DNA of 64,000 bases from an uncultured Ignavibacteria bacterium (GCA_963780165.1 CAWABB010000001.1:1816556-1880555); one strand, 5' to 3'. Counted from the first letter of the stretch, positions 1 to 29,340 are shown. Numbers and translations: made by a program. The notes: a model not told the origin generated them from the sequence alone.

Positions 1-933
1 TTCCTTCAGGTATTCTCTGTCGATGTGCGTGTAGATCTGCGTGGTCGAAATGTCCGAGTGCCCCAGCATTTCCTGCACCGCACGGAGGTCCGCACCCCCT
101 TCCAGGAGATGTGTCGCGAACGAATGGCGGAACGTGTGGGGGTGCACGTCTTTGTCGATCTTCGCGCGCGTGCTGTACGTCTGCACGATCTTCCAGATCG
201 CCATGCGCGTCATCGGCCGGCCACGGGCATTCAGAAACAGCACGTCGGTCGACTGCCCGGAGCGGCGAAGGAGCGGGCGACACTCGGATGCGTACCGCCG
301 GATCCAGGTCAGCGCGGACGAACCCACCGGTACAAGGCGCTCTTTTCTCCCTTTTCCATACACCCGAACCGTGCCGTCGTCCGCCTGGATATCCGACCGT
401 CTCAGGCTGAGAAGCTCCGACACGCGGATCCCGGTGGCATACAGCACCTCCAGGACGGTCCGGTCGCGGAGCCAGAGATTGCGCACGTCCTTCGCCGTCG
501 GTGCAGGCTGCTGCAGGATGCTGTCGACTTCCGTGGTGGTCAGGACATCGGGGAGCTGCCGGGAAAGTTTCGGCGGATCGAGTGTCTCGGTCGGGTTCGT
601 TCGCGCGGCGCCATCCCCGACGAGGAACTTGTGAAAGCCGCGGATGGCAGAGAAACTTCGCGTGATGGAGCGGGGCGACAGCCCGCTCTTGCGGAGCGAC
701 CGAAGGAACCGCGCGGTGTGCTCTTCGGACACCTGGTCGGGAGATGTCACCTGCGCGTCTTCCAGAAACCGCACGTACCGGTCGAGATCGAGCCGATACG
801 ATGCAATGGTATTTGGCGACGCGTTCTTCTGCAGTTGCAGGTAGTGGAGATATTGCAGGCAGTACTGATTCACGGGGATTCGCGGGAGATCATTCCTGGC
901 CGCGAGCGGGGATTGGTTCCTCGCCCTGGTCAT
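1..933 (-). CDS. Tyrosine site-specific recombinase, XerC/XerD family. The C-terminus runs off the window start.
   Basis: Reverse complement of nt 1-100 translates to RGGADLRAVQEMLGHSDISTTQIYTHIDREYLKE, the XerC/D catalytic R...HxxR...Y region. The N-terminus (YLHYLQLQKNASPNTIASYRLDLD) lies near 800-933, with an ATG at 931-933. The gene is absent from the ORF track because its stop lies outside the window. Confidence 0.85.
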   Translation of the reverse strand, partial: MTRARNQSPLAARNDLPRIPVNQYCLQYLHYLQLQKNASPNTIASYRLDLDRYVRFLEDAQVTSPDQVSEEHTARFLRSLRKSGLSPRSITRSFSAIRGFHKFLVGDGAARTNPTETLDPPKLSRQLPDVLTTTEVDSILQQPAPTAKDVRNLWLRDRTVLEVLYATGIRVSELLSLRRSDIQADDGTVRVYGKGRKERLVPVGSSALTWIRRYASECRPLLRRSGQSTDVLFLNARGRPMTRMAIWKIVQTYSTRAKIDKDVHPHTFRHSFATHLLEGGADLRAVQEMLGHSDISTTQIYTHIDREYLKE

Positions 934-3187
934 CGCGCCGCTGCGCCGAAGAGGACGCGCGCCGCACGCGCTTTCGCGGCTCGACGTCGGGATACTTCAC
1001 GCGCGTGTGATAGATGCCAACCAGGACGTTCACGAACGCTTCCTTGACCTTCGTGATGTCCTGCAGCGTTAACGGGCACTCATCCAGCTCACCCTGTTCC
1101 ACGCGCCGCTTCACAACGTCGTCCACAAGATCGGTGATGCGTTGCGGCGTCGGCTCTTCGATCGTCCTGACTGCCGCCTCGATCGCGTCCGCAAGCATCA
1201 TAATCCCGGTTTCTCGGGTCTGCGGCTTCGGTCCGGGATAGCGGTAATCCTGCTCCTTGATCTCGTCGATCTTTGTTTCGTCGTCGGACTGGCGCGCCAC
1301 CTCCAGCGCCTTCGAGTAGAAGAAGTCCATCCGCGTGGTGCCGTGGTGCATCGGGATGAATTCGATCACCTCTTCCGGGAGCTTGTAGTCGCGGGCCAGT
1401 GCCATCCCCTCCTTCACATGGGCCGCGATGATGAGCGAGCTCATGCGCGGCGCAAGCTTGTCGTGCCTGCTGCGGGAGGTCTTCTGATTCTCGACGAAGT
1501 ACGTCGGCTTGATAATCTTCCCGATATCGTGGAAGTATGCGCCGACGCGCGCAAGCGTTGCATTGGCTCCGATCGTTGCGGCCCCCGCCTCAGCCAGGCT
1601 GGCCATGGTCATACTGTGGTGGTAGGTGCCGGGCGCCTTCTCGGCAAGCTGGCGGAGCAGCGGGTGGTTGAACTGCACCAGCTCCAGCAGCGTCAGGTCG
1701 GTCGTGAGCCGGAACGTCTTCTCGATGAAGATCAACAGACCGTATGTCAGCACCGGAGAAATGATGGCGTTGGACGCGGCGAACGCGAGCTGCTGGAGGA
1801 GCAGCCCGAGCGGCTCGCTCCGCGCAAAACCCAGCGCGACGATCGCCAGCCCGTATCCCAGGAAGATGAAGCCCAGAGAGTGGAAGATCTGGGTGCGGTT
1901 CTTCATGTCCCGTACCGTGTAGACCGACAGCGCGCCAGCGACGAGCGAGGCCAGGGCGATGCCGTAATCGTTCCCCCAGATGCCAGCGACGATGAACGAA
2001 AGGATCACCGTCCCGTAAAACCCGACGCGCGAATCGAAGAAGATCGTCAAGAGCATTGAGGCCGCGGGCACGACGATGAGATACTCCACCGGCGCCTTGA
2101 CATGCAGCATCCTGAGCGCCCAGGCGGCGGTCCCGGCAAGGAGCATGATCAGCGCAATCAAGGCGAGCTTTCGTGTTCTGCCCACGATGCGCTTTCTGAA
2201 CAGGAATAGATAGATCCCGTAGAGCGTGACGAGGAGTGCGACGTGCAGCGCGGAGCCGATGATCTGGAGCGGTGTGTCGGTGGCGGGGCCCCGGTCCACA
2301 CGGGCCCGGTTGAACGAATCGAGCTTCAGCTTGATCTCGGGCGTGATGCGGTCGTGCTCGGAGACAATGCGCTCGTTCTCCTGCACGAACCCGGTCGTGC
2401 GCGGAACGGCATCGACGGCGGCAGCGGCGGCAAGCGCTGTGGCGGTGTCGTTGAACACCAGGCTCGGCAGAATGTCCGTGATGATGATCTTGTACGCCTG
2501 GCTGCGCAGGCCCGCTGGCAACCGGCCTTCAGCGTCCAATCGTCTGTCGAGGCGCTCGGCGAGATCCCCGCGGTCCAGGAACCGGCTGAGCGGAACAATC
2601 TCTTCGGTCTTGCCGCGCCGGAGCGCAATGTCGGTCCTCTCGAGCTGCGTCTTCGAGCGGTCGAGGACTCCAGTCTGGAGAAATTCTGTCCCGATCGCGG
2701 CAACCGTGCTTTCTAGGACCGCCATGCGCCCGCGGACGTAGATTCCGCGCAGATCCCGCCACTCCTGATCCGTGAACCGCACATCGAGGCCGGAGCTCGA
2801 GGCGCTGAAGGCGAGCGTATCGCCCGCAGGGATGCGGAGCGTAGAATCCAGACGGGAGAACACTCGTGCAATTGCGGCGCGATAGTGCGCCGGCGCGGTC
2901 GAATCACGTTCAAAGACGGGATAGACGGAACGGCGTGCTTCAGCCACGTCCTGTGCGTACTCCTGCTCGTCGCGGTTGATCGGAAAGGAGAAGGGGGCGA
3001 TAAGATCGCGCTGGGCCCAGATAGCCCCGACGCGCGCATCGACTTCGATCTGTTCTCCCCGGGGGAACATCAGCCCGAGAAGGACGATCAGCCCGAGAGC
3101 GATGCTGAGTTTGGCCGCATCAGACCTGACGAGGTGCAGGCCGCGAAAGCGGCGGCCCAGAGCGAGGAGGGGATATTCATCGGCCAT
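890..3187 (-). CDS. 7TM receptor with intracellular HD/HDIG phosphohydrolase domain (7TMR-HD family).
   Basis: 765 aa. It has an N-terminal extracytoplasmic region, a block of about 7 TM helices, and a C-terminal HD domain (HHSMTMASLAEAG...YFHDIGK...HHG). The start ATG is at 3185-3187. Confidence 0.8.
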   Translation of the reverse strand: MADEYPLLALGRRFRGLHLVRSDAAKLSIALGLIVLLGLMFPRGEQIEVDARVGAIWAQRDLIAPFSFPINRDEQEYAQDVAEARRSVYPVFERDSTAPAHYRAAIARVFSRLDSTLRIPAGDTLAFSASSSGLDVRFTDQEWRDLRGIYVRGRMAVLESTVAAIGTEFLQTGVLDRSKTQLERTDIALRRGKTEEIVPLSRFLDRGDLAERLDRRLDAEGRLPAGLRSQAYKIIITDILPSLVFNDTATALAAAAAVDAVPRTTGFVQENERIVSEHDRITPEIKLKLDSFNRARVDRGPATDTPLQIIGSALHVALLVTLYGIYLFLFRKRIVGRTRKLALIALIMLLAGTAAWALRMLHVKAPVEYLIVVPAASMLLTIFFDSRVGFYGTVILSFIVAGIWGNDYGIALASLVAGALSVYTVRDMKNRTQIFHSLGFIFLGYGLAIVALGFARSEPLGLLLQQLAFAASNAIISPVLTYGLLIFIEKTFRLTTDLTLLELVQFNHPLLRQLAEKAPGTYHHSMTMASLAEAGAATIGANATLARVGAYFHDIGKIIKPTYFVENQKTSRSRHDKLAPRMSSLIIAAHVKEGMALARDYKLPEEVIEFIPMHHGTTRMDFFYSKALEVARQSDDETKIDEIKEQDYRYPGPKPQTRETGIMMLADAIEAAVRTIEEPTPQRITDLVDDVVKRRVEQGELDECPLTLQDITKVKEAFVNVLVGIYHTRVKYPDVEPRKRVRRASSSAQRRDDQGEEPIPARGQE

Positions 3188-3242: not shown

Positions 3243-3284
3243 TCAGAAATGCGAAGCCCCGTCCTGCTGACGCCGGCCGGGGCT
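3243..3284 (-). terminator. Candidate rho-independent terminator downstream of the cytochrome/Cyc2 operon.
   Basis: AGCCCCG...CGGGGCT forms a 7-bp GC stem (3255-3261 / 3278-3284). On the minus-strand transcript it is followed by a U-rich run (UCGCAUUUCUGAUU). It sits 30 nt after the stop of the 3316..3753 gene. The loop is long, so the call is weak. Confidence 0.35.
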
Positions 3285-3315
3285 CCTGGTGCCAATGTTT
3301 CAGACCCTGACACGG

Positions 3316-3753
3316 TCAGTTGTTCTTCGCCCCCTGATTCACCCACTCGGTGATGATGCCGATGTCCCCGTCCGACAATGGCTTGATCGGCTCCTTCTTC
3401 CGCTTCTTGCGGGGATCAAAGGGCATCCGGTCGCCGAACGGCGGATTCTCCAGAAGCTTCTGCACGAAGACGCTCTCCGATGCCTTCCCCGGCTTAACCA
3501 AATCTCCGTGTTTCCCGCCTTTCATCAGCAGATCATACGAGTCGAGCGACAGCTCGCTCGGATTAAACTGCTCCTCCGCATGGCACGGCATGCAGTTCCT
3601 GCTGATGATCGGGACGATGTCTTGCGAGAATGATACGGGCGGGCGGACCTTCGGAGTATCCACTCTTTCCACGCCCTTCTCCTGCGCCCGCGCAGCAACC
3701 GCCCAGCCCACCACGAGCAGCGCCAACACACACCAACGATGACGTTCTCTCAA
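3316..3753 (-). CDS. Periplasmic monohaem c-type cytochrome, PSCyt1-like domain.
   Basis: It has a signal peptide (MRERHRWCVLALLVVGWAVAARA) and a single CXXCH motif (CMPCH). The C-terminus shows the pattern ...GG.HGDLVKPG...S.....L....FGDRMPF...LSDGDIGIITEWVNQGA, which resembles the Planctomycete-type cytochrome c (PSCyt1) domain. It is a paralogue of the C-terminus of the 4979..5683 gene. Confidence 0.7.
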   Translation of the reverse strand: MRERHRWCVLALLVVGWAVAARAQEKGVERVDTPKVRPPVSFSQDIVPIISRNCMPCHAEEQFNPSELSLDSYDLLMKGGKHGDLVKPGKASESVFVQKLLENPPFGDRMPFDPRKKRKKEPIKPLSDGDIGIITEWVNQGAKNN

Positions 3754-3764
3754 CGCGCCCTCCC

Positions 3765-4886
3765 TTACAGGTAAAAGTGAAGCATGATGTGAAACTCGTT
3801 GTTGGAGTAGTTCTCCGGCTCCTCCACGACCACGCGATACATCGGACGGACCTCTACGCCGCTCACGGGGAAAAATTCCACCCCGAAACTGTAGCGCGAC
3901 ATCGCGCCATCCTTCACGTCCTTGTCCGGATCGTAGAAATCGTATGCGACCTTCAGGTCCACGCCCGGCGTGACGACGTAGTTGGCCTCGGCGTATGCCA
4001 CGTAGCCGGTAACGGTCCCCGACGGATGTTTCGTCTGGATCATGTCCCCCTCGCCGAACAGCGTGAAGTCTCCGATGCTGAACGACCCAACGCCGCCGAA
4101 GAGATTCTGCGTCACGTCGCCCGAGGTCGTCGTCCCGAACATGTTCGCCCCCAGGCCGAGATGCATGTCTTTCCCAAGCTCGAAGAGACCGTCGGCCCTG
4201 ACCAGGTATGCCTTGCTGTTCCCCGTCGCGGCGCCGAAGCCGTCCTGCGCGTTGTACACCCCTGCAAACGCGGAGAACCAGCCGGGCGACACTCCCGCCT
4301 CGAGGCCCGTCAGCTCAGGCCGCGGGCTGGATTCCGGACTGAACCCCGTGTAGTGGCGGATGTAGGCCGTATGGTCGTCGAGGCGCGTACCAAAGTTCGG
4401 GACAAACTTTCCGACCTTCACGTGCCCGGCGGCCGGCAGCTGGGAGACCATGCCGAACAACTCAAAGCCACTGTAGAGGCCCTTTTCGAAATAGACGTTC
4501 ACCCTCTTGGCGAGCTTGAAGTTGAGGTACAGATCCCCCTGCATCTCCCAGAACGCGTTGCTGTTCTTCCCGGATGAGCCACCGGTGTCCGGCAGCTGCA
4601 CATAATAATAGAGCGTCCGCACGTCCACGCCGACTCCGACGAAGTTCGTGAGCAGCGTCGTAAAGTCTTCGATCTCCATGTCTGTGCCCCACTCCGGAAC
4701 CGGGAGCGTTTCCCGGCCGTACTGCGCACCAAACAGCTGCCGCATGCCGGCACCGGACGGGTTCACGTGACACGACTGGCACTTCGCGCCCGTCCTGCTC
4801 GAAAACCGCGGCAGGGCGGCAGCCTGGTTGAGCATGAACATCGCGCCAACCACAACGAGAGAAAGACAACGAAGCAGCACGCGCAT
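3765..4886 (-). CDS. cyc2: Cyc2-like fused monohaem cytochrome c / outer-membrane beta-barrel porin.
   Basis: It has a signal peptide (MRVLLRCLSLVVVGAMFMLNQAAA) followed by a single CXXCH (AKCQSCH) within 20 residues of the mature N-terminus. About 340 aa then follow with alternating hydrophobic beta-strand patterns rich in G/Y/F, ending ...IMLHFYL. Size (about 373 aa) and architecture match Cyc2-type iron-oxidase porin-cytochromes. The ATG is at 4884-4886 with an AAGGGA ribosome-binding site upstream. Confidence 0.6.
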   Translation of the reverse strand: MRVLLRCLSLVVVGAMFMLNQAAALPRFSSRTGAKCQSCHVNPSGAGMRQLFGAQYGRETLPVPEWGTDMEIEDFTTLLTNFVGVGVDVRTLYYYVQLPDTGGSSGKNSNAFWEMQGDLYLNFKLAKRVNVYFEKGLYSGFELFGMVSQLPAAGHVKVGKFVPNFGTRLDDHTAYIRHYTGFSPESSPRPELTGLEAGVSPGWFSAFAGVYNAQDGFGAATGNSKAYLVRADGLFELGKDMHLGLGANMFGTTTSGDVTQNLFGGVGSFSIGDFTLFGEGDMIQTKHPSGTVTGYVAYAEANYVVTPGVDLKVAYDFYDPDKDVKDGAMSRYSFGVEFFPVSGVEVRPMYRVVVEEPENYSNNEFHIMLHFYL

Positions 4887-4978
4887 GGTCGTCCCTTTCG
4901 GTCCTGGAGGTGGAATGCACGACACGGGAGGCGGGGAAATATACCTACCCCCCGTGTGTGATTCAACACAACCGACCA

Positions 4979-5683
4979 CTAGTTATTCAGCGCGCCCTGA
5001 TCGACCCAGGTACGGATGGTCGTGATACTCGCGTCCGGCAGGAACGGACCGCCCTGCGGCATGCGGGCACCGAAAGGCGGGTTCGGTGAGATCTTCTTCA
5101 CGAGGTTCGAGCCGGCTCCATCGCCAGGCACGATGGCCGGTCCATGGTTGCCGCCTCTGAGCAGGTCGGCAACCGTTTCCACCGTCAGCCCGTTGGTGCC
5201 GCCGTGGCACCCTGTGCAGCCGTGCTGCACCAGCAACGGGTGAACATCCTGCGAGAAGGAGACCTGTGTCGTCCCCGCCTGAACCGTTACTCCGACGGCA
5301 TTCGAGTTCGCGGAGATCCCGCCCGCCGTCACGGCGCGCACACGATAAAAGTAGCGCGCGCCGGTGGTGAGCCCGGTGATCGTGAGGGAGGTCGCAATTC
5401 CGGCGTCGCGGTTGTTGTAGCCGGCAAGGAACGAGCCGAACAGCGAATCCTGAGAGACGTCGAGGCGATAACCCGTAGCCCCGCTGACGGCGCTCCACCT
5501 TGCGGTGAAGCTTGAATCGGTGACGCCCGTCGGCGAGCCGGCGGTGGGGACGCCGGTGTCGGGCGGAGTAGCGGGGTTGGTGCCCGAATCGCTGCACCCC
5601 GCTGCCAGCAGCATCAGTCCGGCCATTGCTGCCAGAAGCGGGGACGCAGTCGTCGACCCGGCGGAGGATCGAACGATGAACAT
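4979..5683 (-). CDS. Lipoprotein with an FN3-like domain fused to a C-terminal monohaem cytochrome c (PSCyt1-like).
   Basis: Lipobox LLAAGC. The central part has a fibronectin-III-like segment (...GYRLDVSQD...TGLTTGARYFYRVRAVTAGG). The C-terminus has CTGCH plus ...GG.HGPAIVPGDGAGSNLVKKI...FGARMP...ITTIRTWVDQGA, homologous to the 3316..3753 gene. The ATG at 5681-5683 lies 17 nt after the CHRD gene stop. Confidence 0.7.
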   Translation of the reverse strand: MFIVRSSAGSTTASPLLAAMAGLMLLAAGCSDSGTNPATPPDTGVPTAGSPTGVTDSSFTARWSAVSGATGYRLDVSQDSLFGSFLAGYNNRDAGIATSLTITGLTTGARYFYRVRAVTAGGISANSNAVGVTVQAGTTQVSFSQDVHPLLVQHGCTGCHGGTNGLTVETVADLLRGGNHGPAIVPGDGAGSNLVKKISPNPPFGARMPQGGPFLPDASITTIRTWVDQGALNN

Positions 5684-5699
5684 GTGGTGGTGCCTCCTG

Positions 5700-7616
5700 T
5701 TATTTGAGTATGAGCATGCGTTTCGTGAGCGATGGGCCGCTGCCCGCATCCAGCCTGTAGAAATAGACGCCGCTGGAAAGTCCGCGCGCGTCAAAGGTGG
5801 CCAGGTAGGTCCCGGCCGGGCGCACGTCATCAACAAGTGTCGCGACCTCCTGCCCGAGCAGACTGTACACCTTCAGCGACACCCGACCGGGCTCCGGAAC
5901 CTGGAAGCGGATCGAGGTTGACGGATTGAAGGGGTTGGGATAGTTCTGATCCAGCGAAAAGGCTGACGGTAGAGCCTCCTCAACCGGCGCAACGGATGTC
6001 ACCGCGTCTGAACCGAAACGCACCTGTCCGCGGATCTCACCTCCCGGATGGGCGGCCGTATGGAAGTTAGCATAGATGCGACCAGCCAGCAAGGAATCCA
6101 CGAGCGCCCGGGTCAACGGCTGCGACGGGCTGTTCGTGGACCAGTTGTCCGCAATCGTTGCCGACGCAGGATCGCTTGCCCCGGCAATGTTCCGCACCAC
6201 GGGCCCGTTCACACCGACCGGCGCCGCATGGAAGTGCCCGCCGATCGAAAGCGGTCCGGAGAGGCCATAGTACGTAATTGCATAGCCAATGTCTTGACGT
6301 TCCGCATTCAGCACCACGGATCCCGCCCCGCGCCCCGCGGTTGCGACGGCAGGAACTTCCTGATCCCCGTCAAGCATGATGGTGAACCCCACGCCGGTGG
6401 TGAGATGCACCTGGTCTCTGATTTCGCCGGCCGGGTTCGCCGTCGTGTGGAAGTTTACGTAGATCCTCCCTGCCAGCAGCGCCTCCACCAGCGCGACTGT
6501 CAGCGGCTGGGAGTCGGTGGTCGTCCACGTCCCTGCATACGTGGCAGAAGCAGGGCCGCCGCCATTCGCTACACCGCGCACGACCGGCCCGGATTGCCCC
6601 TGATCGCCCGTATGGAAGTGTCCGCCGGCGGTCAGCGGCCCGGTCAGGCCGAAGTAGGTAATCTCGTAGCGCAATTCATTCCGCGCATCGTTCAGCGTGA
6701 ACGACCCGGCCCCTTTCCCGTCTGCGGTCACCGTCCCGGGTTCGTTAGAAGCTTCGAGCCACGAGAAGAAGCTCGTGCCGCCCTGGAGTTCGAGCTGGCC
6801 CCGGATCTCCCCTCCGGGATTCGCGGCGGTATGGAAGTTCACGTAGAGGCGCCCGGCAATGAGCGAATCCGCGAGCGCCGGTGTGAGCGGCGTGCTGTCC
6901 GTGAACTTCCAGCTTCCCTTGATGGCGTCCGCTGCGGGACCCCCGCCCGACGCGATTCCGAGCGCCACGGGCCCCGATACCCCACGAGCCCCCGTATGAA
7001 TGTGGCCGCCCGCACTGAGTGAGCCGCTCAGGTCGCGATAGGCCAGGTAGTAATCGAGCTGCGATCTGTTTGGAGATAGGATGAATACGCCCGTCCCCAT
7101 GGCGTCGGTCGTCACAGGATTCGGTTCCTGCGCCCCGGAGAGGTGCGCGGTGAAGTGCAGGGCTGTCGCAAGCGTGACCTGGCCCCGGATTTCGCCCGCC
7201 GGATTTGAGTTTGTATGGAAATTCACGTAGACCCGGCCGGTGAGCAACGACTCAACAAGTGCCGGTGTGAGCGGCTCTGTGTCGGTGCTCCGCCAGACTC
7301 CCGTGATGATCCCCGACGGCGCCGCCCCCGCCTCTGCAATGCCTCGCATGGCGGCGCCGTTTGTTCCCGGGGACCCCACGTGAAAATGCCCGCCCACCGA
7401 GAGCGCGCCTGTCAGCCCCTGATAGGAGATCACATACGCAAGCTCGGTGAACGTCTCATTCAGCGAGAACGAACCTGAGCCCGTCCCTGTGACGGCGGAG
7501 GGGGGAACGCTCTGCGCGCCGTTCAGCGTTGCCGAAAAGTGGATCTGCGCGTTCGCCGGGCCCGCCCCAGCAAGCACGAGAGCGATCAGCACCATGGTGT
7601 ATCGGAATCGAGTCAT
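5700..7616 (-). CDS. T9SS-secreted protein with four tandem CHRD domains.
   Basis: It has a signal peptide. Four modules of about 150 aa each carry the CHRD signature (GGH[FI]H.G..G..GPV...I.......G.W...D..PLT.ALV..LL.GR.YVNFHT..[NH]P.GEIRGQ). The C-terminus (NYPNPFNPSTSIRFQVPEPGRVSLKVYSLLGQEVATLVD...GVYFYRL) is a Por/T9SS C-terminal sorting domain. Confidence 0.8.
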   Translation of the reverse strand: MTRFRYTMVLIALVLAGAGPANAQIHFSATLNGAQSVPPSAVTGTGSGSFSLNETFTELAYVISYQGLTGALSVGGHFHVGSPGTNGAAMRGIAEAGAAPSGIITGVWRSTDTEPLTPALVESLLTGRVYVNFHTNSNPAGEIRGQVTLATALHFTAHLSGAQEPNPVTTDAMGTGVFILSPNRSQLDYYLAYRDLSGSLSAGGHIHTGARGVSGPVALGIASGGGPAADAIKGSWKFTDSTPLTPALADSLIAGRLYVNFHTAANPGGEIRGQLELQGGTSFFSWLEASNEPGTVTADGKGAGSFTLNDARNELRYEITYFGLTGPLTAGGHFHTGDQGQSGPVVRGVANGGGPASATYAGTWTTTDSQPLTVALVEALLAGRIYVNFHTTANPAGEIRDQVHLTTGVGFTIMLDGDQEVPAVATAGRGAGSVVLNAERQDIGYAITYYGLSGPLSIGGHFHAAPVGVNGPVVRNIAGASDPASATIADNWSTNSPSQPLTRALVDSLLAGRIYANFHTAAHPGGEIRGQVRFGSDAVTSVAPVEEALPSAFSLDQNYPNPFNPSTSIRFQVPEPGRVSLKVYSLLGQEVATLVDDVRPAGTYLATFDARGLSSGVYFYRLDAGSGPSLTKRMLILK

Positions 7617-7645
7617 GTGTGTCTCCAGTCTGGTTGCAGCTGTGG

Positions 7646-7852
7646 TTAGGCCGACCGTTTCGCGGTCGTGACCTTGAGCAATGCGTACAGCGGGCAGAAT
7701 CCGGCGGCACCCGTCACGAGCAGCACGACAGCCACGATCCCGAGGATCACGGCAGTCGGGCCGGTGAGCTGTCCACCCATGATCAACACTCCGATCGCAA
7801 GTGCGACGAGCGTCCGGATGACACGGTCCGCCGAGCCGACATTCTTTGTCAT
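7646..7852 (-). CDS. DUF2892 (YgaP-like) small inner-membrane protein.
   Basis: 68 aa with two TM helices. Conserved ADRVIR...G.......LTG..GFCPLYALL motif. It is the first gene of the operon and has a GGGGGGA ribosome-binding site. Confidence 0.65.
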   Translation of the reverse strand: MTKNVGSADRVIRTLVALAIGVLIMGGQLTGPTAVILGIVAVVLLVTGAAGFCPLYALLKVTTAKRSA

Positions 7853-7975
7853 TTCAGTCCCCCCAGAAAAAGGTTTGCGTACTGCGTTGATTCAGTTGCT
7901 GTCGCCGTCCTGATCTTCGTCGGGGAAGGCCTTCTCAAACGACCTTTTGATGTTGTCTTCGACCATCCTCGCAGG

Positions 7976-7991
7976 GTCAAGCACCGTGCCA
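7976..7991 (-). promoter_or_regulatory. Putative sigma54 (-24/-12) promoter reading toward the DUF2892/CHRD/Cyc2 operon.
   Basis: The minus strand reads TGGCACGGTGCTTGAC. This matches TGGCACG-N4-TTGMW, with GG at -24 and TTG at -12. The single mismatch is GA in place of the conserved GC. It lies about 125 bp upstream of the DUF2892 start, and a sigma54 activator is encoded adjacent. Confidence 0.45.
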
Positions 7992-8100
7992 CACCGGGAG
8001 GCGCGCAGGCCGGCATGAACATGGCGGAAATGGCTGATACGGTGCGGGTCCGGGGGGGAACGGGGATTTCAGGCCGCACCCCGGGTACGGAGATGGGCGA

Positions 8101-8128
8101 CCCGGTGTGGCGGCCGTGCCACACCGGG
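8101..8128. promoter_or_regulatory. Perfect inverted repeat CCCGGTGTGGC-N6-GCCACACCGGG, a candidate enhancer (UAS) for the adjacent NtrC-family activator.
   Basis: The arms are 11 bp with a 6-bp spacer. It lies about 115 bp upstream of the putative sigma54 promoter, relative to minus-strand transcription. The half-site GCCACACCGGG recurs at 7988-7998, overlapping the -24 element. Confidence 0.45.
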
Positions 8129-8223
8129 GAGAGGCTCAACGAAAGCCACGATGGAGCTCGCAAGAGACCGGGAGATGGTCTTTGGGAGACTGGGCTGAAG
8201 CGCGCAAAAGGCTGCGGCAGCGC

Positions 8224-9639
8224 TTACGCGCGATATGTGGCCGGGTCGATCGAGTGCTCGGCGAGTTTGCGGTACACGGTCTTCCTGTCCACCTCCATCA
8301 GCCGCGCTATCTGGTTGATGTTGCCCCGATGCTCCCGCATGAGCCGGAGCAGGTATCGCTCCTCGGCGACGCGCACAATCACCCCGAGATAATCGCGGTA
8401 CGGAATATCGAGGCCGGGGACGGCGGGTTGCTCATCTCCCGCGAGCGCGTGATCGGCGGCACCGGGGAGTTCGAGGTGCGTGATCGTGTCGCCGGGCGTC
8501 TTGAGCAGCGCACGCTTGATCAGGTTCTCGAGCTCGCGGACATTCCCGCGCCAGGGATGCGCAACCATCTCGCCGATGACGTCAGGACTGATGGAGGTGA
8601 CGCGCCCACCAGCAAGGTGGGCGTGAAGCCGCAAGAAATGCTCCGCAAGCAACGGGATGTCCTCCACGCGCTCGCGCAGTGGCGGAAGCGTGATCGGAAA
8701 CACGTTTAGACGGTAGAAGAGATCCTCGCGGAAATCTCCCGCAGCAACCATGACATCAAGATTGCGGTTCGTTGCGGCCACGACACGGGTGTCGACCGTA
8801 ACGGTCTTCCCTCCGCCGACGCGCTGGAATGTCTTTTCCTGCAGTACCCTCAGGAGCTTCCCCTGCAGCGCTGGCGGCATCTCCCCGATCTCATCCAGGA
8901 AGAGGGTCCCCGTGTCTGCCTCCTCGAACTTCCCGGTCCGCTGCCTGTCGGCTCCCGTGAACGAGCCCCGCTCGTGGCCGAACAGCTCGCTTTCCAGCAG
9001 TTGTTCCGGCAGCGCCGTACAGTTCACGGCAACGAACGGGCTCGACTTCCGTCTGCCGTTGAAGTGCAGCGCACGCGCGACAAGCTCCTTCCCGGTTCCG
9101 CTTTCACCAAGGATCAACACGGTCACGTCGGTGTCGGCAACCTGCGTGATCTGGGTGATCACGTCCCGTATCCCGGGGCTGCGGGAAACCATCCCGCCCA
9201 GACTGTACTTCGTCTGGACGGCGTCCCGCAGCGACCTGAGCTCGAGCTCCCGGAACTGCTGATCCAGAGCCCGGCGGATCTTGATCGACAGCTCCTCATT
9301 GTTGGACGGTTTGGTCAGGTAGTCGATGGCGCCGAGTCGCATGGCTTCCACCGCCGTCTGGATGGAACCGAATCCCGTCACCATGATCACAGGCAGGTCA
9401 GGCCACTGCTGCTTGACGATGCGAAGAAGGTCGATGCCACTTCCGCTCCCCATCACAAGATCGGAAAGGAGCAGGTCACATCGCTGGGCAGCGAGGATAT
9501 CGAGCGCTTTCGTGACGCCGTCGGCCAGCGTCACCTTGTAGCCCTCGTCCTCGAGCACGGTGCGGGTCGCCAGCCGGAAGGCTCCGTCGTCATCCGTCAC
9601 AAGGATGTGTTCTCTCGGGCGTGCGTCAGTGTGTGTCAT
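8224..9639 (-). CDS. Sigma54-dependent response regulator (NtrC family; REC-AAA+-HTH).
   Basis: Receiver domain (ILVTDDD...DLLLSDLVMG...). AAA+ sigma54-interaction domain (GESGTGKELVARALH, GAFTGA-like SFTGA). C-terminal Fis-type HTH. Its start overlaps the stop of the upstream kinase. Confidence 0.9.
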   Translation of the reverse strand: MTHTDARPREHILVTDDDGAFRLATRTVLEDEGYKVTLADGVTKALDILAAQRCDLLLSDLVMGSGSGIDLLRIVKQQWPDLPVIMVTGFGSIQTAVEAMRLGAIDYLTKPSNNEELSIKIRRALDQQFRELELRSLRDAVQTKYSLGGMVSRSPGIRDVITQITQVADTDVTVLILGESGTGKELVARALHFNGRRKSSPFVAVNCTALPEQLLESELFGHERGSFTGADRQRTGKFEEADTGTLFLDEIGEMPPALQGKLLRVLQEKTFQRVGGGKTVTVDTRVVAATNRNLDVMVAAGDFREDLFYRLNVFPITLPPLRERVEDIPLLAEHFLRLHAHLAGGRVTSISPDVIGEMVAHPWRGNVRELENLIKRALLKTPGDTITHLELPGAADHALAGDEQPAVPGLDIPYRDYLGVIVRVAEERYLLRLMREHRGNINQIARLMEVDRKTVYRKLAEHSIDPATYRA

Positions 9640-11209
9640 CGTGCGCGTCTCCGGACGGCAGCGTGATCGTGAGCCGTGTTCCCTTGCCGGCTGTGCTCTG
9701 GACGGTGATCGTGCCGCCGTGCTGGTGAACGATTCCGTGGGTGACCGAGAGGCCGAGGCCGACCCCGCTTACCTCTTTCTTTGTAGTGAAAAAGGCGTCG
9801 AAAATGCGATGAAGGTGTTCGGGAGGGATGCCCGTGCCGGTGTCGTCCACACGGACCACGAGGTTGCCTCCCTCCGCCCGCGCCCCGATCGAGATCGTCC
9901 CACCATGCGGCATCGCATCCCGCGAGTTCAGAAGAAGATTCAGGAACACCTGCTTCAGCTTGTCCCGGGATCCGCGGACTGCAGGGAGTCCGGGGCCCGC
10001 CGATACGTCGATCGAGATACCCTGCCCTGCGAACGATTCCCGGTACATGCGAACAACGTCTTCCACGAGGTCCATCACGTTCACCGGTGAGCGCTCCACC
10101 CGGACCGGAGCGCCGCGGTACATGTCCAGCATCGCCCTCGTCAATCCCGCAAGGCGGTTCACCTCGTCCAGCGCCACCGACACCAGCTCGTGCGCCGGAT
10201 CATCGGCGCGGATTTTCCGGAGCGATGAAGACAGGAGGCTCTGGATGTTATGGACGGGGTTGTTGATCTCGTGCGAAAGCTGGGCGGTCAGCGTGCCAGT
10301 CAGCGCGAGGCGCTCGCTGCGCACGAGGTCTTCCTGTGTCCTGCGCAGGCGCTCGAGTGCCTCTTCGATGTCACGATTCTTCCGCGACAGCTCACGGTTG
10401 GCGTGATCGAGCTCGCCGATCTTCTGCCTGAGCGAGAGACGCATGTCGTCGAACCTTGCCGCAAGGAACCCGAGCTCGTCTCCCGCGTCCGTTTCCTCCG
10501 CCGCCCGAGGGGTGGCAGACTCGAGGTCGCCCTTGCTGATCGCGCGGGTCGCCGCAACCAGCCGGTCCACCGGCCTGGTGACAAACCGCGTGAACATGAA
10601 CGACGAGACAAAGATGACGAGCCCCGTGAATCCCAGGAAGATGAGGAGCGACCGTGTCCAGTTCGCCCTGGTCGCGGCGGTCATATCGGCGAACGAAACG
10701 CTGAGGTCGGCCGCGCCAAGCGTGTAGCCCACGGGCACAGCATGGCACTCCTGGCAGGTCTTTGTTGCAGTGAACGGGATGACCCCTCGGAACCGATCGC
10801 CCGCCCGAACGAACTCGGGGGTTCCGCTCTCCAGTGCCTTCCGCGTCATCGGGTCGCGCGCACCGATGTCGACGAACCGGCGGCTGGTGGCGACCTTCGG
10901 CACCGCAGGCTGCGCTTCCTTGCGCAGCCGGAGGTCATTCACCACGAGCCGCACCGTCTCGAACCGCTCGATGGTATTCACCCGCTCGATAAACGCAGTA
11001 TCGACTTCCAGATTCGTCACCATCATGCTGACCAGGGATTCCCGGAGGATGTCGGCATGTGTGTGGGCGGACAACTGTGCCTGCTCCACCATTTCGCGCT
11101 CCTGGAACCGGTTCTGGAGGAGCACGCTAACCGAGATAAACAGGAGGAACAGGGGGAGAATCCCCAGGAGAATCTTCCGGGAGAGCGGCAGACGCTGCAG
11201 AACGTGCAT
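9626..11209 (-). CDS. Sensor histidine kinase with a periplasmic CXXCH (haem-c) containing sensor domain.
   Basis: N-terminal TM, a periplasmic domain of about 170 aa containing TKTCQECHAVPVGYTLGAADLSVSF, a second TM, HAMP, HisKA (LSHEINNPV) and HATPase_c. The periplasmic module may be Tll0287-like/DUF3365 (haem-c PAS-like), but this is unconfirmed. The likely start is the ATG at 11207-11209. Confidence 0.85.
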   Translation of the reverse strand: MHVLQRLPLSRKILLGILPLFLLFISVSVLLQNRFQEREMVEQAQLSAHTHADILRESLVSMMVTNLEVDTAFIERVNTIERFETVRLVVNDLRLRKEAQPAVPKVATSRRFVDIGARDPMTRKALESGTPEFVRAGDRFRGVIPFTATKTCQECHAVPVGYTLGAADLSVSFADMTAATRANWTRSLLIFLGFTGLVIFVSSFMFTRFVTRPVDRLVAATRAISKGDLESATPRAAEETDAGDELGFLAARFDDMRLSLRQKIGELDHANRELSRKNRDIEEALERLRRTQEDLVRSERLALTGTLTAQLSHEINNPVHNIQSLLSSSLRKIRADDPAHELVSVALDEVNRLAGLTRAMLDMYRGAPVRVERSPVNVMDLVEDVVRMYRESFAGQGISIDVSAGPGLPAVRGSRDKLKQVFLNLLLNSRDAMPHGGTISIGARAEGGNLVVRVDDTGTGIPPEHLHRIFDAFFTTKKEVSGVGLGLSVTHGIVHQHGGTITVQSTAGKGTRLTITLPSGDAHDDTH

Positions 11210-11331
11210 GGAACGGCCGGTAATTGGTGGACGGCGACGGCTGATTCGGCTCAAGGTACCTGTTTGACGAAAGAGAATCAAAAAACAGCCTTCTTGAACC
11301 TCCACATTCGGATGCCTATATTATAGATTCG

Positions 11332-16280: not shown

Positions 16281-16988
16281 CTAGTCGCAGCACCCTCCGT
16301 GAGGAGCGGCCGGCAAGGGAGCCGCAGGGCTGACATACGGAATTCCCAGACCGAGCCCCCGCACAATCAACAACACGCCCAGCAGTGCGCCGAACCACGG
16401 GAGCATTGCGACGAGCTTCATCCTGAAGGAGCCCGGCAGTTTGTATCCCGCCATCGACAACCCCAGCATGATGGGCACAGTACCCGTGCCGAAGCCGGCC
16501 ATGAACATCACTCCGCCGGCCTCGGAGCCGGTCGTAGCCGCGCCGGCGAGCGCCGCCACAACGAACCCACACGGGAGAAAGCCGTTCAGCACGCCTACCA
16601 GAAACAACGCGAACAGCGACCGGCGTCGGAACAGCGAGCCCAGCGCGTCAGTCATGCGCCTCTGCACGGCATCGGCACCGGGGACACGGGGAAGGAAGCG
16701 GCGTGCAACCGCCGGGGCGAGGGATGTAAGAATCAGGAATGCGCCGAGAACAATGGAAAGGGCCTGCTGGTAGCCGAGAAGCGCGATGCCTCTGCCGATG
16801 GCGCCGACCACGAGGCCCAGCAGAGCGTATGTCACAATACGGCCGCTGTTGTAGGTAAGTCGACCTGCGAGGAGCGGCCATGCGGTCTTCCCGCCAGTTG
16901 GCAGCGCAAGCGCGATGGGCCCGCACATCCCGGCACAATGCACGCTTCCCATGACGCCGACAAGAAATCCCGATACAATCTCCATCAC
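16281..16988 (-). CDS. DsbD_2/TauE-like membrane protein associated with cbb3 oxidase maturation.
   Basis: Multi-TM protein with an HCAGMCGP motif near the N-terminus. It is the last gene of the cco cluster. Confidence 0.6.
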   Translation of the reverse strand: MMEIVSGFLVGVMGSVHCAGMCGPIALALPTGGKTAWPLLAGRLTYNSGRIVTYALLGLVVGAIGRGIALLGYQQALSIVLGAFLILTSLAPAVARRFLPRVPGADAVQRRMTDALGSLFRRRSLFALFLVGVLNGFLPCGFVVAALAGAATTGSEAGGVMFMAGFGTGTVPIMLGLSMAGYKLPGSFRMKLVAMLPWFGALLGVLLIVRGLGLGIPYVSPAAPLPAAPHGGCCD

Positions 16989-16995
16989 GGAGCCC

Positions 16996-17451
16996 TCAGT
17001 TCAGAACGACTTTCGCCTCTTCATAGTACTGCGCTCCGCCGGCGAGCCATTCGACCTTCACCGTCCAGAGCCCGGGGTGCAGCCACGGTGATTCAATACG
17101 CATCGTTCCGGACGAGTCCAGGCTGAGCGGCGCGGCAAAATCCATCGCGCGGTCCGACGGACGGTAGAGCGTCACGGTTCCGTTCACCTCGCCGGACCGA
17201 GCGACCCCGGGGATCATGATCGTCACGCCGCCGGTCGTTCCGCTCACCGTCATCAGGGCGCCCGAGGATCGCGCACGCTGGATGCTCTGAATCCGCCCCT
17301 CGTACTCGAGCCCCCGCTGGTAGTAGTCGTCCGCGACCAGGTCGGTCGGGCTCGAGAGCGCGATCCAGACCATCACTGCCAAGCCCACACCGAAGATCGC
17401 GAACGCGATCACGATCCCGGTCCCCCAGTTCAATGTGCGCGCCGCGTTCAT
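16996..17451 (-). CDS. ccoH: FixH/CcoH-family protein.
   Basis: Single N-terminal TM plus a FixH-like periplasmic domain. ATGA overlap with ccoG. Confidence 0.65.
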   Translation of the reverse strand: MNAARTLNWGTGIVIAFAIFGVGLAVMVWIALSSPTDLVADDYYQRGLEYEGRIQSIQRARSSGALMTVSGTTGGVTIMIPGVARSGEVNGTVTLYRPSDRAMDFAAPLSLDSSGTMRIESPWLHPGLWTVKVEWLAGGAQYYEEAKVVLN

Positions 17452-18893
17452 CGCTGCACCCCCGGACCGAGAAACGAGGTGTGAATCGTATGGAGCTTCT
17501 TCCCGTCCGCGTACACGCCAACGGTCAACGGTGTGCTCAGGCCCGTAAGCTGCTCGCGCTGCAGCAGAATCAGCAGCTTCGATTCCGCGATCCCCTGTGG
17601 CTCCGCCGCCAGGTCACCGCCCATGACCTCAATCTGCCCTTCCGTCTCCTCGAGGATGAACGTAACGGGCACTTTCACGAATGTCTTGTTCAGGACCTTC
17701 ACGTCGTATACGTTGCTGACCCTGCCGTCCGGGCGGTCCTGATAGAACATCCCCGGAGTACGGAGAACCGTCACATCGACCTCGCTCCGATTGGCCAGCA
17801 AAACAGTAAGGACGCTCACGAGGAGAAGCAGCACCACCGAGTATCCGATGACGCGGGACGTCCAGAGGCGCGACGTGCCGGTGGCGATCGCCGTGGCGGA
17901 GTCGTACCGTACGAGCCCACGGGGTTTCCCGATCTTGTCCATCACGGTGTCGCAGGCGTCGATGCATGCGGTACAGTTCACGCATTCCAGCTGCGTGCCG
18001 TTGCGGATGTCGATTCCTGTCGGACAAACCTCCACACACTGGTCGCAGTCGATGCAGTCGCCCTTCGTGCGGTCAGTGCCCCGGCGGAGCCTGCCCCGGG
18101 GTTCGCCGCGACGATAATCATACCCGATCACGATAGAGTTCTTGTCGAGGAGCACGCCCTGCAGCCTGCCGTACGGACAGACCAGGATACACGCCTGCTC
18201 GCGGAACCACGAGAAGATCCAATAGAACACCGTGCTGAAGATGAGCATCGCCGTGAGCCCGCCGATATGCCTGAAGGGCGGGTCGGTCACGATCGTCCAG
18301 AGCTGATCGGTCCCGATGATCCAGGCGAGCAGGGTGTTGCCGATAGCGAAGGCCAGCACGGCGTAGATGAGAAACTTCGTCCCCTTGCGGAGAAGCTTCT
18401 GGCTGTTCCAGGGGGACTCGTTCAGCCGGCGCTGCTGTCGGTGGTCCCCCTCCACCCAGTAGTCGATCTTGCGGAACACCATCTCCATGAATACGGTCTG
18501 CGGACAGACCCAGCCACAGAAAAGGCGCCCGAAGACGACCGTGAAAAGAATGATGAAGACGATCGTTGTGATGAGCGCTATGGCGAGCAAATAGAAGTCG
18601 TGGGGGCCGAACACGGTGCCGAACAGGATGAATCTCCGTTCGAGGATGTTGAAGAGGAAGAACGGCGTGTCGTGCATGCGGACGAACGGCATGCCGACGA
18701 GGAAGGCCAGGAGGAGAAAGCTCAGGATCGTGCGCCACCGGTAGAAGCGGCCAGACGGCTGCTTGGGATAGATCCAGCTCCGCTTCCCCTGTTTGTTGAC
18801 GATGGTCATCGAGTCACGGAAGCTCTCCGTGGCCTGACCCGGCTCCTCCGCCGCCCCCTCGGCCCGTACCGTTCCCCCGTCTGTGTCTCCCAT
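17448..18893 (-). CDS. ccoG: cbb3 oxidase accessory protein CcoG/FixG (4Fe-4S ferredoxin).
   Basis: TM helices plus two ferredoxin cysteine clusters (CILVCPYGRLQG; CIDCDQCVEVCPTGIDIR). Confidence 0.85.
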   Translation of the reverse strand: MGDTDGGTVRAEGAAEEPGQATESFRDSMTIVNKQGKRSWIYPKQPSGRFYRWRTILSFLLLAFLVGMPFVRMHDTPFFLFNILERRFILFGTVFGPHDFYLLAIALITTIVFIILFTVVFGRLFCGWVCPQTVFMEMVFRKIDYWVEGDHRQQRRLNESPWNSQKLLRKGTKFLIYAVLAFAIGNTLLAWIIGTDQLWTIVTDPPFRHIGGLTAMLIFSTVFYWIFSWFREQACILVCPYGRLQGVLLDKNSIVIGYDYRRGEPRGRLRRGTDRTKGDCIDCDQCVEVCPTGIDIRNGTQLECVNCTACIDACDTVMDKIGKPRGLVRYDSATAIATGTSRLWTSRVIGYSVVLLLLVSVLTVLLANRSEVDVTVLRTPGMFYQDRPDGRVSNVYDVKVLNKTFVKVPVTFILEETEGQIEVMGGDLAAEPQGIAESKLLILLQREQLTGLSTPLTVGVYADGKKLHTIHTSFLGPGVQR

Positions 18894-19727
18894 TTATCCG
18901 GTTGCCTTTGTGCTATCGGCCGGAGCGGCATTCACGGCGGGCTCGACGTACAGCGTTCCCTCCTGCTTCTTGGCATTCGGGGGGGCTGTTCCCTGCAGCG
19001 ACAAGACGTAACTGGCGATTTCCTGTATCTGCTTTGGCGTAAACACCAGCTGCCAGCTGATCATGCCTTTTGCCGCCACACCGTTCTTGATGGTTGCATA
19101 CACGTTTGAGATGGCACCCCCGTGAATCCAGTACTGGTCGGTGAGGTTGGGCCCCACCACGCCCTGCCCCTGGGGACCATGACAGGAAACGCAGTACTTG
19201 CCGAACGCTTCTTTGCCGCGCCCGAGGGCTCCCGGGTCCACGAGCGCCGCGAGCGCGTTCTCGTCGATCGCACCTTCTTTCGCGATCATCATCCGCCGCT
19301 GGAGATCCGCCGCCGCGACCTCCTGCCGGTACTCCTCGACCATGAGCGGCGAACTCCCGAGCACATGATAGCTGATCATATAGGTCGCCCCGAAGACGAT
19401 TGTCCCCAGGAAGAGCGTTGTGAACCAAGGAGGTATGCGGTTGTCCAGCTCCCGGATGTTGTCATACACGTGGTCGGGCATTTCGGCGTCGGCGGACTTC
19501 CCGGCAAGCGCATAGCGCCGCAGGAAGGCGAACGTCGCACCGAGCCGTTTCCGATCGGCCTCCGGGAGCACGAGGAGAAAGAAGAGGATCGCGATGATGA
19601 TGATCGTGGTTGTCGCGGTAAGGTTCAGCGCGAAGGTGGTGCCCGGATCCCCGGACCCCGCCGCGAACGCGGCGCCGGTGGGCATGATGGGAAGGGTCAT
19701 CATCAACATACGTCGCAGTGTTGTCAT
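18894..19727 (-). CDS. ccoP: cbb3-type cytochrome c oxidase subunit III (CcoP), monohaem variant.
   Basis: N-terminal TM/FixP_N-like region and a single CVSCHGPQGQG haem site. The ATG at 19725-19727 overlaps the ccoQ stop. Confidence 0.8.
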   Translation of the reverse strand: MTTLRRMLMMTLPIMPTGAAFAAGSGDPGTTFALNLTATTTIIIIAILFFLLVLPEADRKRLGATFAFLRRYALAGKSADAEMPDHVYDNIRELDNRIPPWFTTLFLGTIVFGATYMISYHVLGSSPLMVEEYRQEVAAADLQRRMMIAKEGAIDENALAALVDPGALGRGKEAFGKYCVSCHGPQGQGVVGPNLTDQYWIHGGAISNVYATIKNGVAAKGMISWQLVFTPKQIQEIASYVLSLQGTAPPNAKKQEGTLYVEPAVNAAPADSTKATG

Positions 19728-19912
19728 AGTCTCACTTCCTTTCCGCGCACGCTGTCATCGTCGAACGGGAGCCGCTCACAGTGGTCGATCCGCTCACGCG
19801 TGATATGGAACACCCGGACGACAATCAGGAGGAAGGCCAGGACCGAGAGTATGAGAGATACCTGGCCGATGTACTCCGAGCCGGTCAGGGATGAAAGATA
19901 GTGTGAGATCAC
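19724..19912 (-). CDS. ccoQ: Small cbb3 oxidase subunit (CcoQ-like).
   Basis: 62-aa single-TM peptide (VISHYLSSLTGSEYIGQVSLILSVLAFLLIVV...) with a GTG start. It lies between ccoNO and ccoP. Confidence 0.5.
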   Translation of the reverse strand: MISHYLSSLTGSEYIGQVSLILSVLAFLLIVVRVFHITRERIDHCERLPFDDDSVRGKEVRL

Positions 19913-19928
19913 GGTGGCTTTCCTCCTG

Positions 19929-22043: not shown

Positions 22044-22050
22044 GCGTTCC

Positions 22051-29328: not shown

Positions 29329-29340
29329 CCGGAGGTGGGT

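Follow-up and report, generated by a model that had tools for sequence, protein, structure and literature searches.

Cyc2 is a widely used marker gene for neutrophilic iron oxidation. To our knowledge, its downstream partners are known for a few Proteobacteria only, in the form of Cyc1, and are hinted at in the Chlorobia, in the form of a c5-type cytochrome. We describe here a locus from an uncultured Ignavibacteria bacterium, contained in a stretch of 64,000 nucleotides (nt; GCA_963780165.1 CAWABB010000001.1:1816556-1880555, hereafter the window, with positions counted from its first letter), in which a Cyc2-like fused cytochrome-porin, called the pore in the following, is flanked by two paralogous one-haem cytochromes of the PSCyt1 type (PF07635). 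The conserved pore-cytochrome module is solidly supported by the comparisons below, and its function in electron exchange with the cell exterior is put forward as a proposal.

In the Cyc2 pathway, electrons pass from Cyc2 to the periplasmic Cyc1 or another c-type cytochrome and on to a cbb3 or aa3 oxidase (PMC8406198; McAllister et al. 2020, PMC7029218). Cyc2 is recognized by a length of at least 365 amino acids (aa), one haem motif, a porin, the signature AxPxFAR[Q/K][T/Y] ahead of CXXCH and PxL behind it (Keffer et al. 2021, PMC8406198), and OprP and OprO are the templates reported for it (PMC8406198). In the Chlorobia, which are grouped with the Ignavibacteria within the Bacteroidota in the literature, cyc2 always adjoins a small one-haem 'c5 family' cytochrome with an N-terminal CXXCH (Tsuji et al., bioRxiv 10.1101/653014). 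FeGenie surveys have recorded Cyc2 matches in Ignavibacteriales genomes (PMC8478452, PMC13594681), which are not tied to the pore family described here. FoxE, the periplasmic two-haem Fe(II) oxidoreductase of the photoferrotroph Rhodobacter ferrooxidans SW2 (5mab), has an arrangement in which each domain supplies the methionine ligand for its partner's haem (PMC10654088). The classical PF07635 domain forms the N-terminus of large Planctomycete and Verrucomicrobia proteins that carry PSCyt2/PSD1 (DUF1549/DUF1553). In our literature search no paper connected Cyc2-like pores with cytochromes that are PSCyt1-type or FoxE-like, none named Cyc2 and PSCyt1 together, and the papers naming PSCyt1 or PF07635 do not treat this pore-cytochrome module. 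A small cytochrome neighbour of Cyc2 (Chlorobia) and Cyc2 matches in Ignavibacteriales are already known; the PSCyt1-type partners appear to be new.

Two PSCyt1-type cytochromes flank the pore gene

The three genes belong to a compact minus-strand gene run spanning 3316..11305, and two candidate transcription signals accompany them:

5683..4979, minus strand: lipoprotein cytochrome, 234 aa (Pfam fn3 and PSCyt1)
4938..4966, minus strand: promoter-like site (TTGAAT, 17 nt, TATATT) in the 92-nt gap between the lipoprotein cytochrome and pore genes
4886..3765, minus strand: Cyc2-like fused cytochrome-porin (pore), 373 aa
3753..3316, minus strand: small stand-alone PSCyt1-type one-haem cytochrome, 145 aa (Pfam PSCyt1)
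3253..3286, minus strand: GC-rich hairpin followed by a U-rich stretch, 3' of the small cytochrome gene

The same three products, of 234, 373 and 145 aa, are found in the public gene calls. Pore and small cytochrome genes are separated by 11 nt. The small cytochrome gene has a TTG start with the ribosome-binding site GGGAGGG upstream, and the lipoprotein cytochrome gene an ATG start with AGGAGG ahead of it. The longest open reading frame (ORF) of the pore opens at 4979; its true start is the ATG at 4886, from which a normal signal peptide results. From the promoter-like site the pore and the small cytochrome could be transcribed on their own; with 9 of 12 matches it was not above shuffle expectation in the sigma-70 promoter scan. 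The hairpin (-25.1 kcal/mol, z -1.8) is a possible operon terminator with modest support, and the intrinsic-terminator scan was likewise not above shuffle expectation.

The original prediction, made from the sequence alone, held both flanking products to be PSCyt1-like paralogues that share a set of motifs, and this is borne out. Both exceed the Pfam gathering cut-off for PSCyt1 (22 bits), the small cytochrome with 27.8 bits (residues 54-103) and the lipoprotein cytochrome with 30.4 bits (residues 156-199), so that each has a genuine PSCyt1 match, and residues 40-145 of the former align with residues 141-234 of the latter at 38% identity (BLASTP, E 4e-21). Each mature protein contains one CXXCH and no further cysteine; this haem motif is CMPCH in the small cytochrome (3594..3580, residue 54) and CTGCH in the lipoprotein cytochrome (5218..5204, residue 156). 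Pfam found only fn3 beside PSCyt1 in the two proteins, without the PSCyt2/PSD1 domains that are typical, not defining, of PF07635. Their PSCyt1 relatives (319 plus about 90 clusters) are all proteins of 130-240 aa, with PF07635 recorded for nearly all of them, and NCBIfam held no useful family for either cytochrome or for the pore.

The small cytochrome carries a Sec signal (residues 1-23, 3753..3685, cleaved between ARA and QE), and its domain stands alone, as predicted. Its family comprises 319 clusters of 133-150 aa, nearly all PF07635, and the family alignment keeps C-x-P-C-H, GG..G, PPFG.RMP and W...G(A), with C54, P56, C57, H58, M110, P111 and W137 invariant. Met110 (3426..3424) lies in PPFGDRMP, ahead of a C-terminus that reads WVNQGAKNN; this invariant methionine of the PPFG(D/A)RMP motif sits 52 residues past the haem histidine and is the probable distal (sixth) haem ligand. 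The corresponding PPFGARMP of the lipoprotein cytochrome contains Met208, and both proteins are probably His/Met-ligated. The AlphaFold2 model of the small cytochrome has a predicted local distance difference test score (pLDDT) of 72.7.

In the second cytochrome, the domain is preceded by a lipobox, a linker and a true FN3 domain, again in line with the prediction. Its N-terminus reads MFIVRSSAGSTTASPLLAAMAGLMLLAAG-C30 with the lipobox LLAAG-C30, judged by pattern, and its orthologues have LAGC, VAGC or LSGC. Signal peptide and lipobox (5683..5594) are followed by a 20-residue Pro/Thr linker (5593..5534), the FN3 domain (5533..5294) and the PSCyt1-type haem domain (about 5263..4982). The FN3 match on residues 51-130 scores 37.7 bits (E 2.4e-9) against a Pfam cut-off of 25 bits. 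The full FN3-PSCyt1 architecture occurs in only about 18 protein clusters near the window, and because of this confinement FN3 is a local, lineage-specific elaboration of the tether and not a core feature. An FN3 fusion as the general form of the system was rejected, since most relatives of the lipoprotein cytochrome have 130-145 aa and a Pro-rich linker without FN3. Spacers in other lineages are TIG or another immunoglobulin-like (Ig-like) domain.

The carrier domain is related to a haem domain of FoxE

PDB sequences searched with the single small cytochrome gave nothing at E <= 10. The profile of its family reached haem domain 2 of FoxE (5mab, residues 200-289; E 1.1e-3) and the C-terminal haem domain of hydrazine synthase alpha (5c2v; E 4.6e-3), which makes FoxE the best relative of solved structure by profile; the same two proteins were top-ranked by Foldseek with the AlphaFold2 model, FoxE coming third by fold. 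The FoxE fragment in turn passes the Pfam PSCyt1 cut-off with 23.2 bits. Shared between FoxE and the small-cytochrome family are C..CH, PS..EL.L..Y, PG.P..S, DRMP and WI.QGAK. Orthology with FoxE was rejected and homology is at the domain level only, the proteins of the locus having one haem each and no foxYZ genes; no PQQ (pyrroloquinoline quinone)-propeller or DMT (drug/metabolite transporter) gene was found near the locus. By analogy with the FoxE domains, the one-haem PSCyt1 proteins may possibly pair through swapped methionine ligands.

The pore is Cyc2-like in architecture

The gene between the two cytochromes had originally been called Cyc2. A fused cytochrome-porin does lie there, with a conserved link to its neighbours, but its identity as Cyc2 is not established. 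The product has a 24-residue signal peptide and a single haem motif, CQSCH (residues 36-40, 4781..4767), which lies 12 residues into the mature chain, preceded by ALPRFSSRT (4817..4791) and followed by H-VNPSGAGMR. The AlphaFold2 model, evaluated with DSSP, has 16 beta-strands; its overall pLDDT is 58, with a weak N-terminal half and blocks in the C-terminal half mostly at 73-86. Foldseek returned 158 outer-membrane porins at E <= 1e-3 for this model and aligned it to OprP (2o4v) and OprO (4rjw) with template modelling (TM) scores of 0.56-0.57 and E about 1e-6. Pfam Porin_4 scored 23.8 bits, slightly under its cut-off, and the pore profile gave chance matches only among PDB sequences.

All 532 close homologues of the pore are unannotated. 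A profile search of 1.84 billion representatives recovered 1,899 relatives at E <= 1e-3, so the family amounts to some 1,900 representative clusters at 50% identity, and the segment A.PR[FY][AS].R[TY]...CxxCH.NP.GGG.R is present in nearly all full-length members of the best 150 pore relatives. The barrel is unusually conserved, with 55-65% identity across the class.

The pore agrees with Cyc2 in length (373 aa), signal peptide, single N-terminal CXXCH and a predicted 16-strand porin barrel. Its ALPRFSSRT matches four of the seven fixed positions of AxPxFAR[Q/K][T/Y], with R in place of K/Q; the family consensus ALPRFASRT matches five, and some members, with ALPRFAAQT, match six. PxL, expected about four residues after CXXCH, is not in the pore, where a proline at +3 is not followed by leucine and the superfamily reads VNP[ST]GGGMR. 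Judged by these published motifs, the pore is Cyc2-like in architecture and probably in mechanism, and is not established as Cyc2 proper.

The pore-cytochrome linkage is conserved

A scan of species-representative genomes yielded 63 loci with the pore, nearly all labelled as Ignavibacteria or Bacteroidota metagenome-assembled genomes (MAGs), whose six-frame ORFs were scored with hidden Markov models of both cytochrome families. Enough downstream DNA was available at 58 of the 63 loci (the count was corrected at L005 and L062), and at about 54 of these 58 the small cytochrome gene, in the same orientation, is the next one after the pore gene. This adjacency is far beyond chance.

A second cytochrome, a PSCyt1 lipoprotein, was found in about 27 loci and takes two forms. 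Type U, the kind in the window, is encoded upstream of the pore; these lipoproteins have CTGCH and in most cases just 130-145 aa with a Pro-rich linker. Type D is encoded between the pore and the small cytochrome and is a lipoprotein with an Ig-like spacer, in which Pfam found no match, and with CX4CH such as CVNAGCH; these forms have additional conserved cysteine pairs. CX4CH (CVNAGCH, CALSSCH, CAVSDCH, CAFPGCH) replaces CXXCH at the haem-motif position in many partner lipoprotein cytochromes, among them:

L002, 7126..7845: CX4CH partner lipoprotein cytochrome
L067, 1387..1806: CX4CH partner lipoprotein cytochrome
L069, 3490..3921: CX4CH partner lipoprotein cytochrome
L072, 184..606: CX4CH partner lipoprotein cytochrome

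Distant relatives of the pore keep a cytochrome next to it in otherwise unrelated gene neighbourhoods. Four of five with readable DNA (L067, L068, L069, L072) adjoin a lipoprotein cytochrome of 139-156 aa that reaches 37-56 bits with the type-U profile; the contig of the fifth (L070/L071) contains hardly any DNA upstream of the pore, and at a sixth distant pore a 150-aa gene, known by its position alone, overlaps upstream. Because the distant pores have the lipoprotein type, this looks like the older partner and the soluble 145-aa type like an addition of the Ignavibacteria.

This distribution bears on the possibility that there is no dedicated conduit at all: the PSCyt1 proteins would be general periplasmic carriers for a cbb3 oxidase or another enzyme, the pore would have a different role, such as redox sensing, peroxide or metal detoxification or solute uptake, and the linkage would reflect shared regulation. 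The cluster adjoins a two-component system and housekeeping genes, the pore stands alone in some genomes, and accessory genes for Fe oxidation were not seen in the 64-kb window. We nevertheless consider this account rather improbable, given that adjacency of pore and cytochrome has held across very distant pores, that gaps or overlaps of 0-15 nt are typical between the two genes, and that the carriers are homologous to a domain of a known Fe(II) oxidoreductase.

Pores without a neighbouring cytochrome include one on a 3.0-Mb Ignavibacteriota contig (L001/L019, 6001..7113), where the pore gene has a cation-efflux gene on one side and a UvrD-type helicase gene on the other; a cytochrome is also missing beside the pore in L021 and in L065, a partial pore match labelled Terriglobia. 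In L005, the closest related uncultured Ignavibacteria MAG, the pore gene is 98% identical over the matched stretch and is split over two frames (5971..7569), with a stop-to-stop ORF that continues into the small cytochrome gene. The split is probably a frameshift from assembly error and could also mark a pseudogene.

The lipoprotein cytochrome travels with a CHRD protein, probably of the cell surface

Upstream of the lipoprotein cytochrome gene, the minus-strand run continues with four further genes and a promoter motif; one more gene follows downstream of the small cytochrome:

11305..9626, minus strand: histidine kinase (Pfam HAMP, HisKA, HATPase)
9639..8224, minus strand: sigma-54-dependent response regulator (Pfam REC, AAA+, HTH_8)
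7976..7991, minus strand: sigma-54-type -24/-12 motif TGGCACGGTGCTTGAC (TGGCACG-N4-TTGAC), 233 nt after the regulator gene
7852..7646, minus strand: YgaP-like membrane protein (ygaP)
7616..5700, minus strand: CHRD/T9SS protein with four CHRD domains and a type IX secretion system (T9SS) C-terminal sorting domain (Pfam, TIGR04183)
3187..890, minus strand: 7TMR-HD protein

A 7TMR-HD gene is found downstream in 34 loci. The CHRD/T9SS protein (Pfam CHRD, 347 bits in four stretches; Por_Secre_tail, 31 bits; TIGR04183) is probably located at the cell surface, as its sorting domain suggests. Cysteine is absent from it, and its four GGH[F/I]H motifs might bind metal. Among the loci that have an upstream lipoprotein cytochrome, type U almost always lies directly after the CHRD/T9SS gene (about 9 of 11). 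The locus thus consists of two separable modules, the pore with the small cytochrome and the CHRD surface protein with the lipoprotein cytochrome.

The pairing raises the possibility that the lipoprotein cytochrome is displayed on the surface together with the T9SS-secreted CHRD protein, in a layout like that of MtrC-MtrB-MtrA in which FN3 would hold the haem off the cell. The CHRD/T9SS gene ends 16 nt ahead of the lipoprotein cytochrome gene, and the pair is kept together even where regulator genes separate it from the pore. Bacteroidota commonly flip lipoproteins to the surface (PMC5080379), and the variety of Ig-like spacers inserted from lineage to lineage (FN3, TIG, another Ig-like domain) suggests selection for reach. 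Against this, the residues that follow the lipid-modified cysteine, C-S-D-S-G-T-N in the window and C-K-D-M-G-V-E in the family consensus, hold one acidic residue each and miss the published Bacteroidetes surface-export signals K-(D/E)2, Q-A-(D/E)2, SDDDD and SDDFE, rules that may not be those of the Ignavibacteria. A single haem would also make a very short surface wire. We hold surface display to be quite improbable; CSDSG, lacking the acidic run of the export signals, weakly favours a periplasmic orientation of the lipoprotein cytochrome.

A haem-motif sensor kinase and a sigma-54 activator precede the cluster

The histidine kinase has a CXXCH (CQECH, 10756..10742) in its periplasmic part, and 11 of 11 orthologues retain it together with the surrounding sequence, IPFxATxVCQKCHAVPxGYTL. 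The periplasmic sensor domain has no match in Pfam, and the protein is probably, judging by its CXXCH, a c-haem redox sensor outside the kinds that Pfam covers. At least 15 related loci have orthologues of this kinase and of the sigma-54 regulator upstream of the pore.

The sigma-54-type motif is situated upstream of ygaP, the CHRD gene and the lipoprotein cytochrome gene. The count of this pattern within the window is not significant; the motif is meaningful through its position, which is conserved across loci, as it recurs 105-215 nt past the regulator stop in 10 of 16 related loci (named among them are L016, L020, L022, L029, L037, L039, L046, L052 and L063). Its -12 element is TTGA rather than the usual TTGC. 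In L046 the motif precedes the gene of an extracytoplasmic function (ECF) sigma factor (5189..5779), which is followed by the pore and the small cytochrome, an order that suggests a regulatory cascade.

Proposed electron route and its direction

A cbb3-type oxidase operon, complete with ccoI, fused ccoNO, ccoP and ccoG (24626..17448), lies 13 kb from the pore-cytochrome cluster:

16281..24626, minus strand: cbb3-type cytochrome oxidase cluster (Pfam COX1 with FixO, FixP_N with Cytochrome_CBB3, FixG, E1-E2 ATPase)
24626..22227, minus strand: ccoI
22100..19929, minus strand: fused ccoNO, encoding a CcoN-CcoO polypeptide of 723 aa
19727..18894, minus strand: ccoP, 277 aa
18893..17448, minus strand: ccoG
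16988..16281, minus strand: DsbD_2 protein

Just one cytochrome domain was detected in the CcoP of 277 aa.

We tentatively favour, with a confidence that falls a little short of an even balance, the reading that the three genes encode one Cyc2-type conduit from the outer membrane to the periplasm, with Fe(II) as the likeliest donor and the cbb3 oxidase as its outlet. The pore would form a 16-strand outer-membrane barrel with a single c-haem on its N-terminal segment, and this haem would accept electrons from an extracellular redox substrate, most likely Fe(II). Both PSCyt1-type cytochromes would act as its periplasmic partners: the 145-aa protein, with its Sec signal and its place in the transcription unit of the pore, as a soluble, diffusible shuttle, and the 234-aa protein as a lipid-anchored carrier that the Pro/Thr linker and FN3 keep off the membrane. 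Electrons would then reach the inner-membrane chain, most plausibly the cbb3 oxidase. A relay between the outer and inner membranes, as originally predicted for the two cytochromes, would be a reasonable interpretation of these features. Expression is probably controlled by the haem-motif sensor kinase and the sigma-54 activator through the conserved sigma-54-type promoter.

The same hardware could also run outward, so that under anoxia electrons from respiration would leave the cell for extracellular Fe(III), humic substances or electrodes. Reports of Cyc2-like genes come from Fe(III)-reducing Ignavibacteriaceae and from genomes of humic lakes, with a proposed role in humic or iron reduction (PMC6344600, PMC8478452, PMC13594681). 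The direction of flow is not fixed by sequence, and reducing conditions could just as well be what the haem-motif sensor kinase responds to. We regard export as unlikely, however: known outward conduits use multihaem wires and this locus has one haem per protein, the probable His/Met ligation usually gives a high potential that would suit uptake toward an oxidase, the closest characterized relatives, Cyc2 and FoxE, are Fe(II) oxidases, and a high-affinity cbb3 oxidase is encoded nearby.

Several observations weigh against an inward Fe(II) conduit. Cultured Ignavibacteria are heterotrophic, and some reduce Fe(III). The cbb3 operon lies outside the cluster, and genomes of this kind can be expected to have one in any case. 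The pore departs from Cyc2 in its missing PxL and in matching only four of the seven signature positions, the AlphaFold2 models are only moderate (pLDDT 73 for the small cytochrome, 58 for the pore), and on the 3.0-Mb contig mentioned above the pore has no adjacent cytochrome. The second cytochrome was present in the examined flanks of just about half of the loci, and it travels with the CHRD/T9SS gene rather than with the pore, for which reason it may serve the CHRD protein.

A broader picture is possible, which we regard as doubtful as a whole. It sees a widespread and apparently undescribed two-gene module of a lipoprotein FoxE/PSCyt1-like cytochrome and a fused cytochrome-porin (A.PR[FY]A.R[TY]...CxxCH-xNP[ST]GGGMR), whose pore family would be a sister to, or an unrecognized branch of, canonical Cyc2, and which in Ignavibacteria would be placed under a haem-motif sensor kinase and sigma-54, the window being an elaborated example. 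Many 'heterotrophic' Bacteroidota and Ignavibacteria would then exchange electrons with extracellular iron or humics, and the paralogues may form a split FoxE-like two-haem unit by way of swapped methionines.

What the locus contributes is a conserved family of candidate partners for the Cyc2-like pores, in Ignavibacteria as in more distant lineages, tied by homology to the photoferrotroph iron oxidase FoxE, and with it small, expressible proteins for studying how electrons might leave a fused cytochrome-porin. A pore accompanied by a PSCyt1 partner could be a better genomic signature for judging if the many 'Cyc2 hits' in heterotrophic soil and sediment Bacteroidota stand for genuine extracellular electron transfer, and the upstream genes present a candidate redox-sensing regulatory circuit.

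Other features of the window

Two large proteins with T9SS tails, a PKD-domain protein of 905 aa and an SBBP beta-propeller protein of 946 aa, are encoded in 26611..32175 (plus strand). A tRNA gene (26256..26330) lies upstream of these genes, and a second tRNA gene is located at 41248..41321.

Comparison with described systems

The locus shares with MtrCAB, PioAB and MtoAB the logic of an outer-membrane barrel combined with a periplasmic cytochrome, to which Mtr adds a lipoprotein cytochrome, with the components encoded side by side. Systems of the MtrAB/PioAB type run ten-haem wires through a separate 26-strand barrel, whereas here each component has one haem and the 16-strand barrel carries its own. 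A multihaem conduit was rejected, there being one haem in each of the three proteins.

With classical PSCyt1 proteins the two cytochromes share the Pfam domain and the single CXXCH, as well as the downstream MP and W(I/V)..GA motifs, which we take to be common to both. Unlike there, the domain makes up the whole mature protein or has a lipid anchor and an Ig-like spacer as its only additions, and its gene is linked to that of an outer-membrane cytochrome-porin.

The single partner of Chlorobia cyc2 is annotated as c5 and not as PSCyt1, a comparison by description only, and no lipoprotein or Ig-like spacer form has been reported for it. FoxE differs in having two fused haem domains, the companions FoxY and FoxZ and no pore partner, whereas the cytochromes described here have one haem each and are encoded by separate genes.

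From Cyc2 the pore differs in reading ALPRF(A/S)(S/A)RT for AxPxFAR[Q/K][T/Y] and NP(S/T)GGGMR instead of PxL, and the partners differ from those of the Cyc2 pathway, where Cyc1 is a two-haem c4 protein, in being one-haem PSCyt1-type proteins, one of them lipid-anchored. What the two have in common is a pore of more than 365 aa with a signal peptide, a single N-terminal CXXCH, preceded in the pore by a partial match to A-x-P-x-F-A..[T/Y], and a predicted 16-strand barrel resembling OprO/OprP, together with small periplasmic c-type partners and a cbb3 oxidase in the genome.

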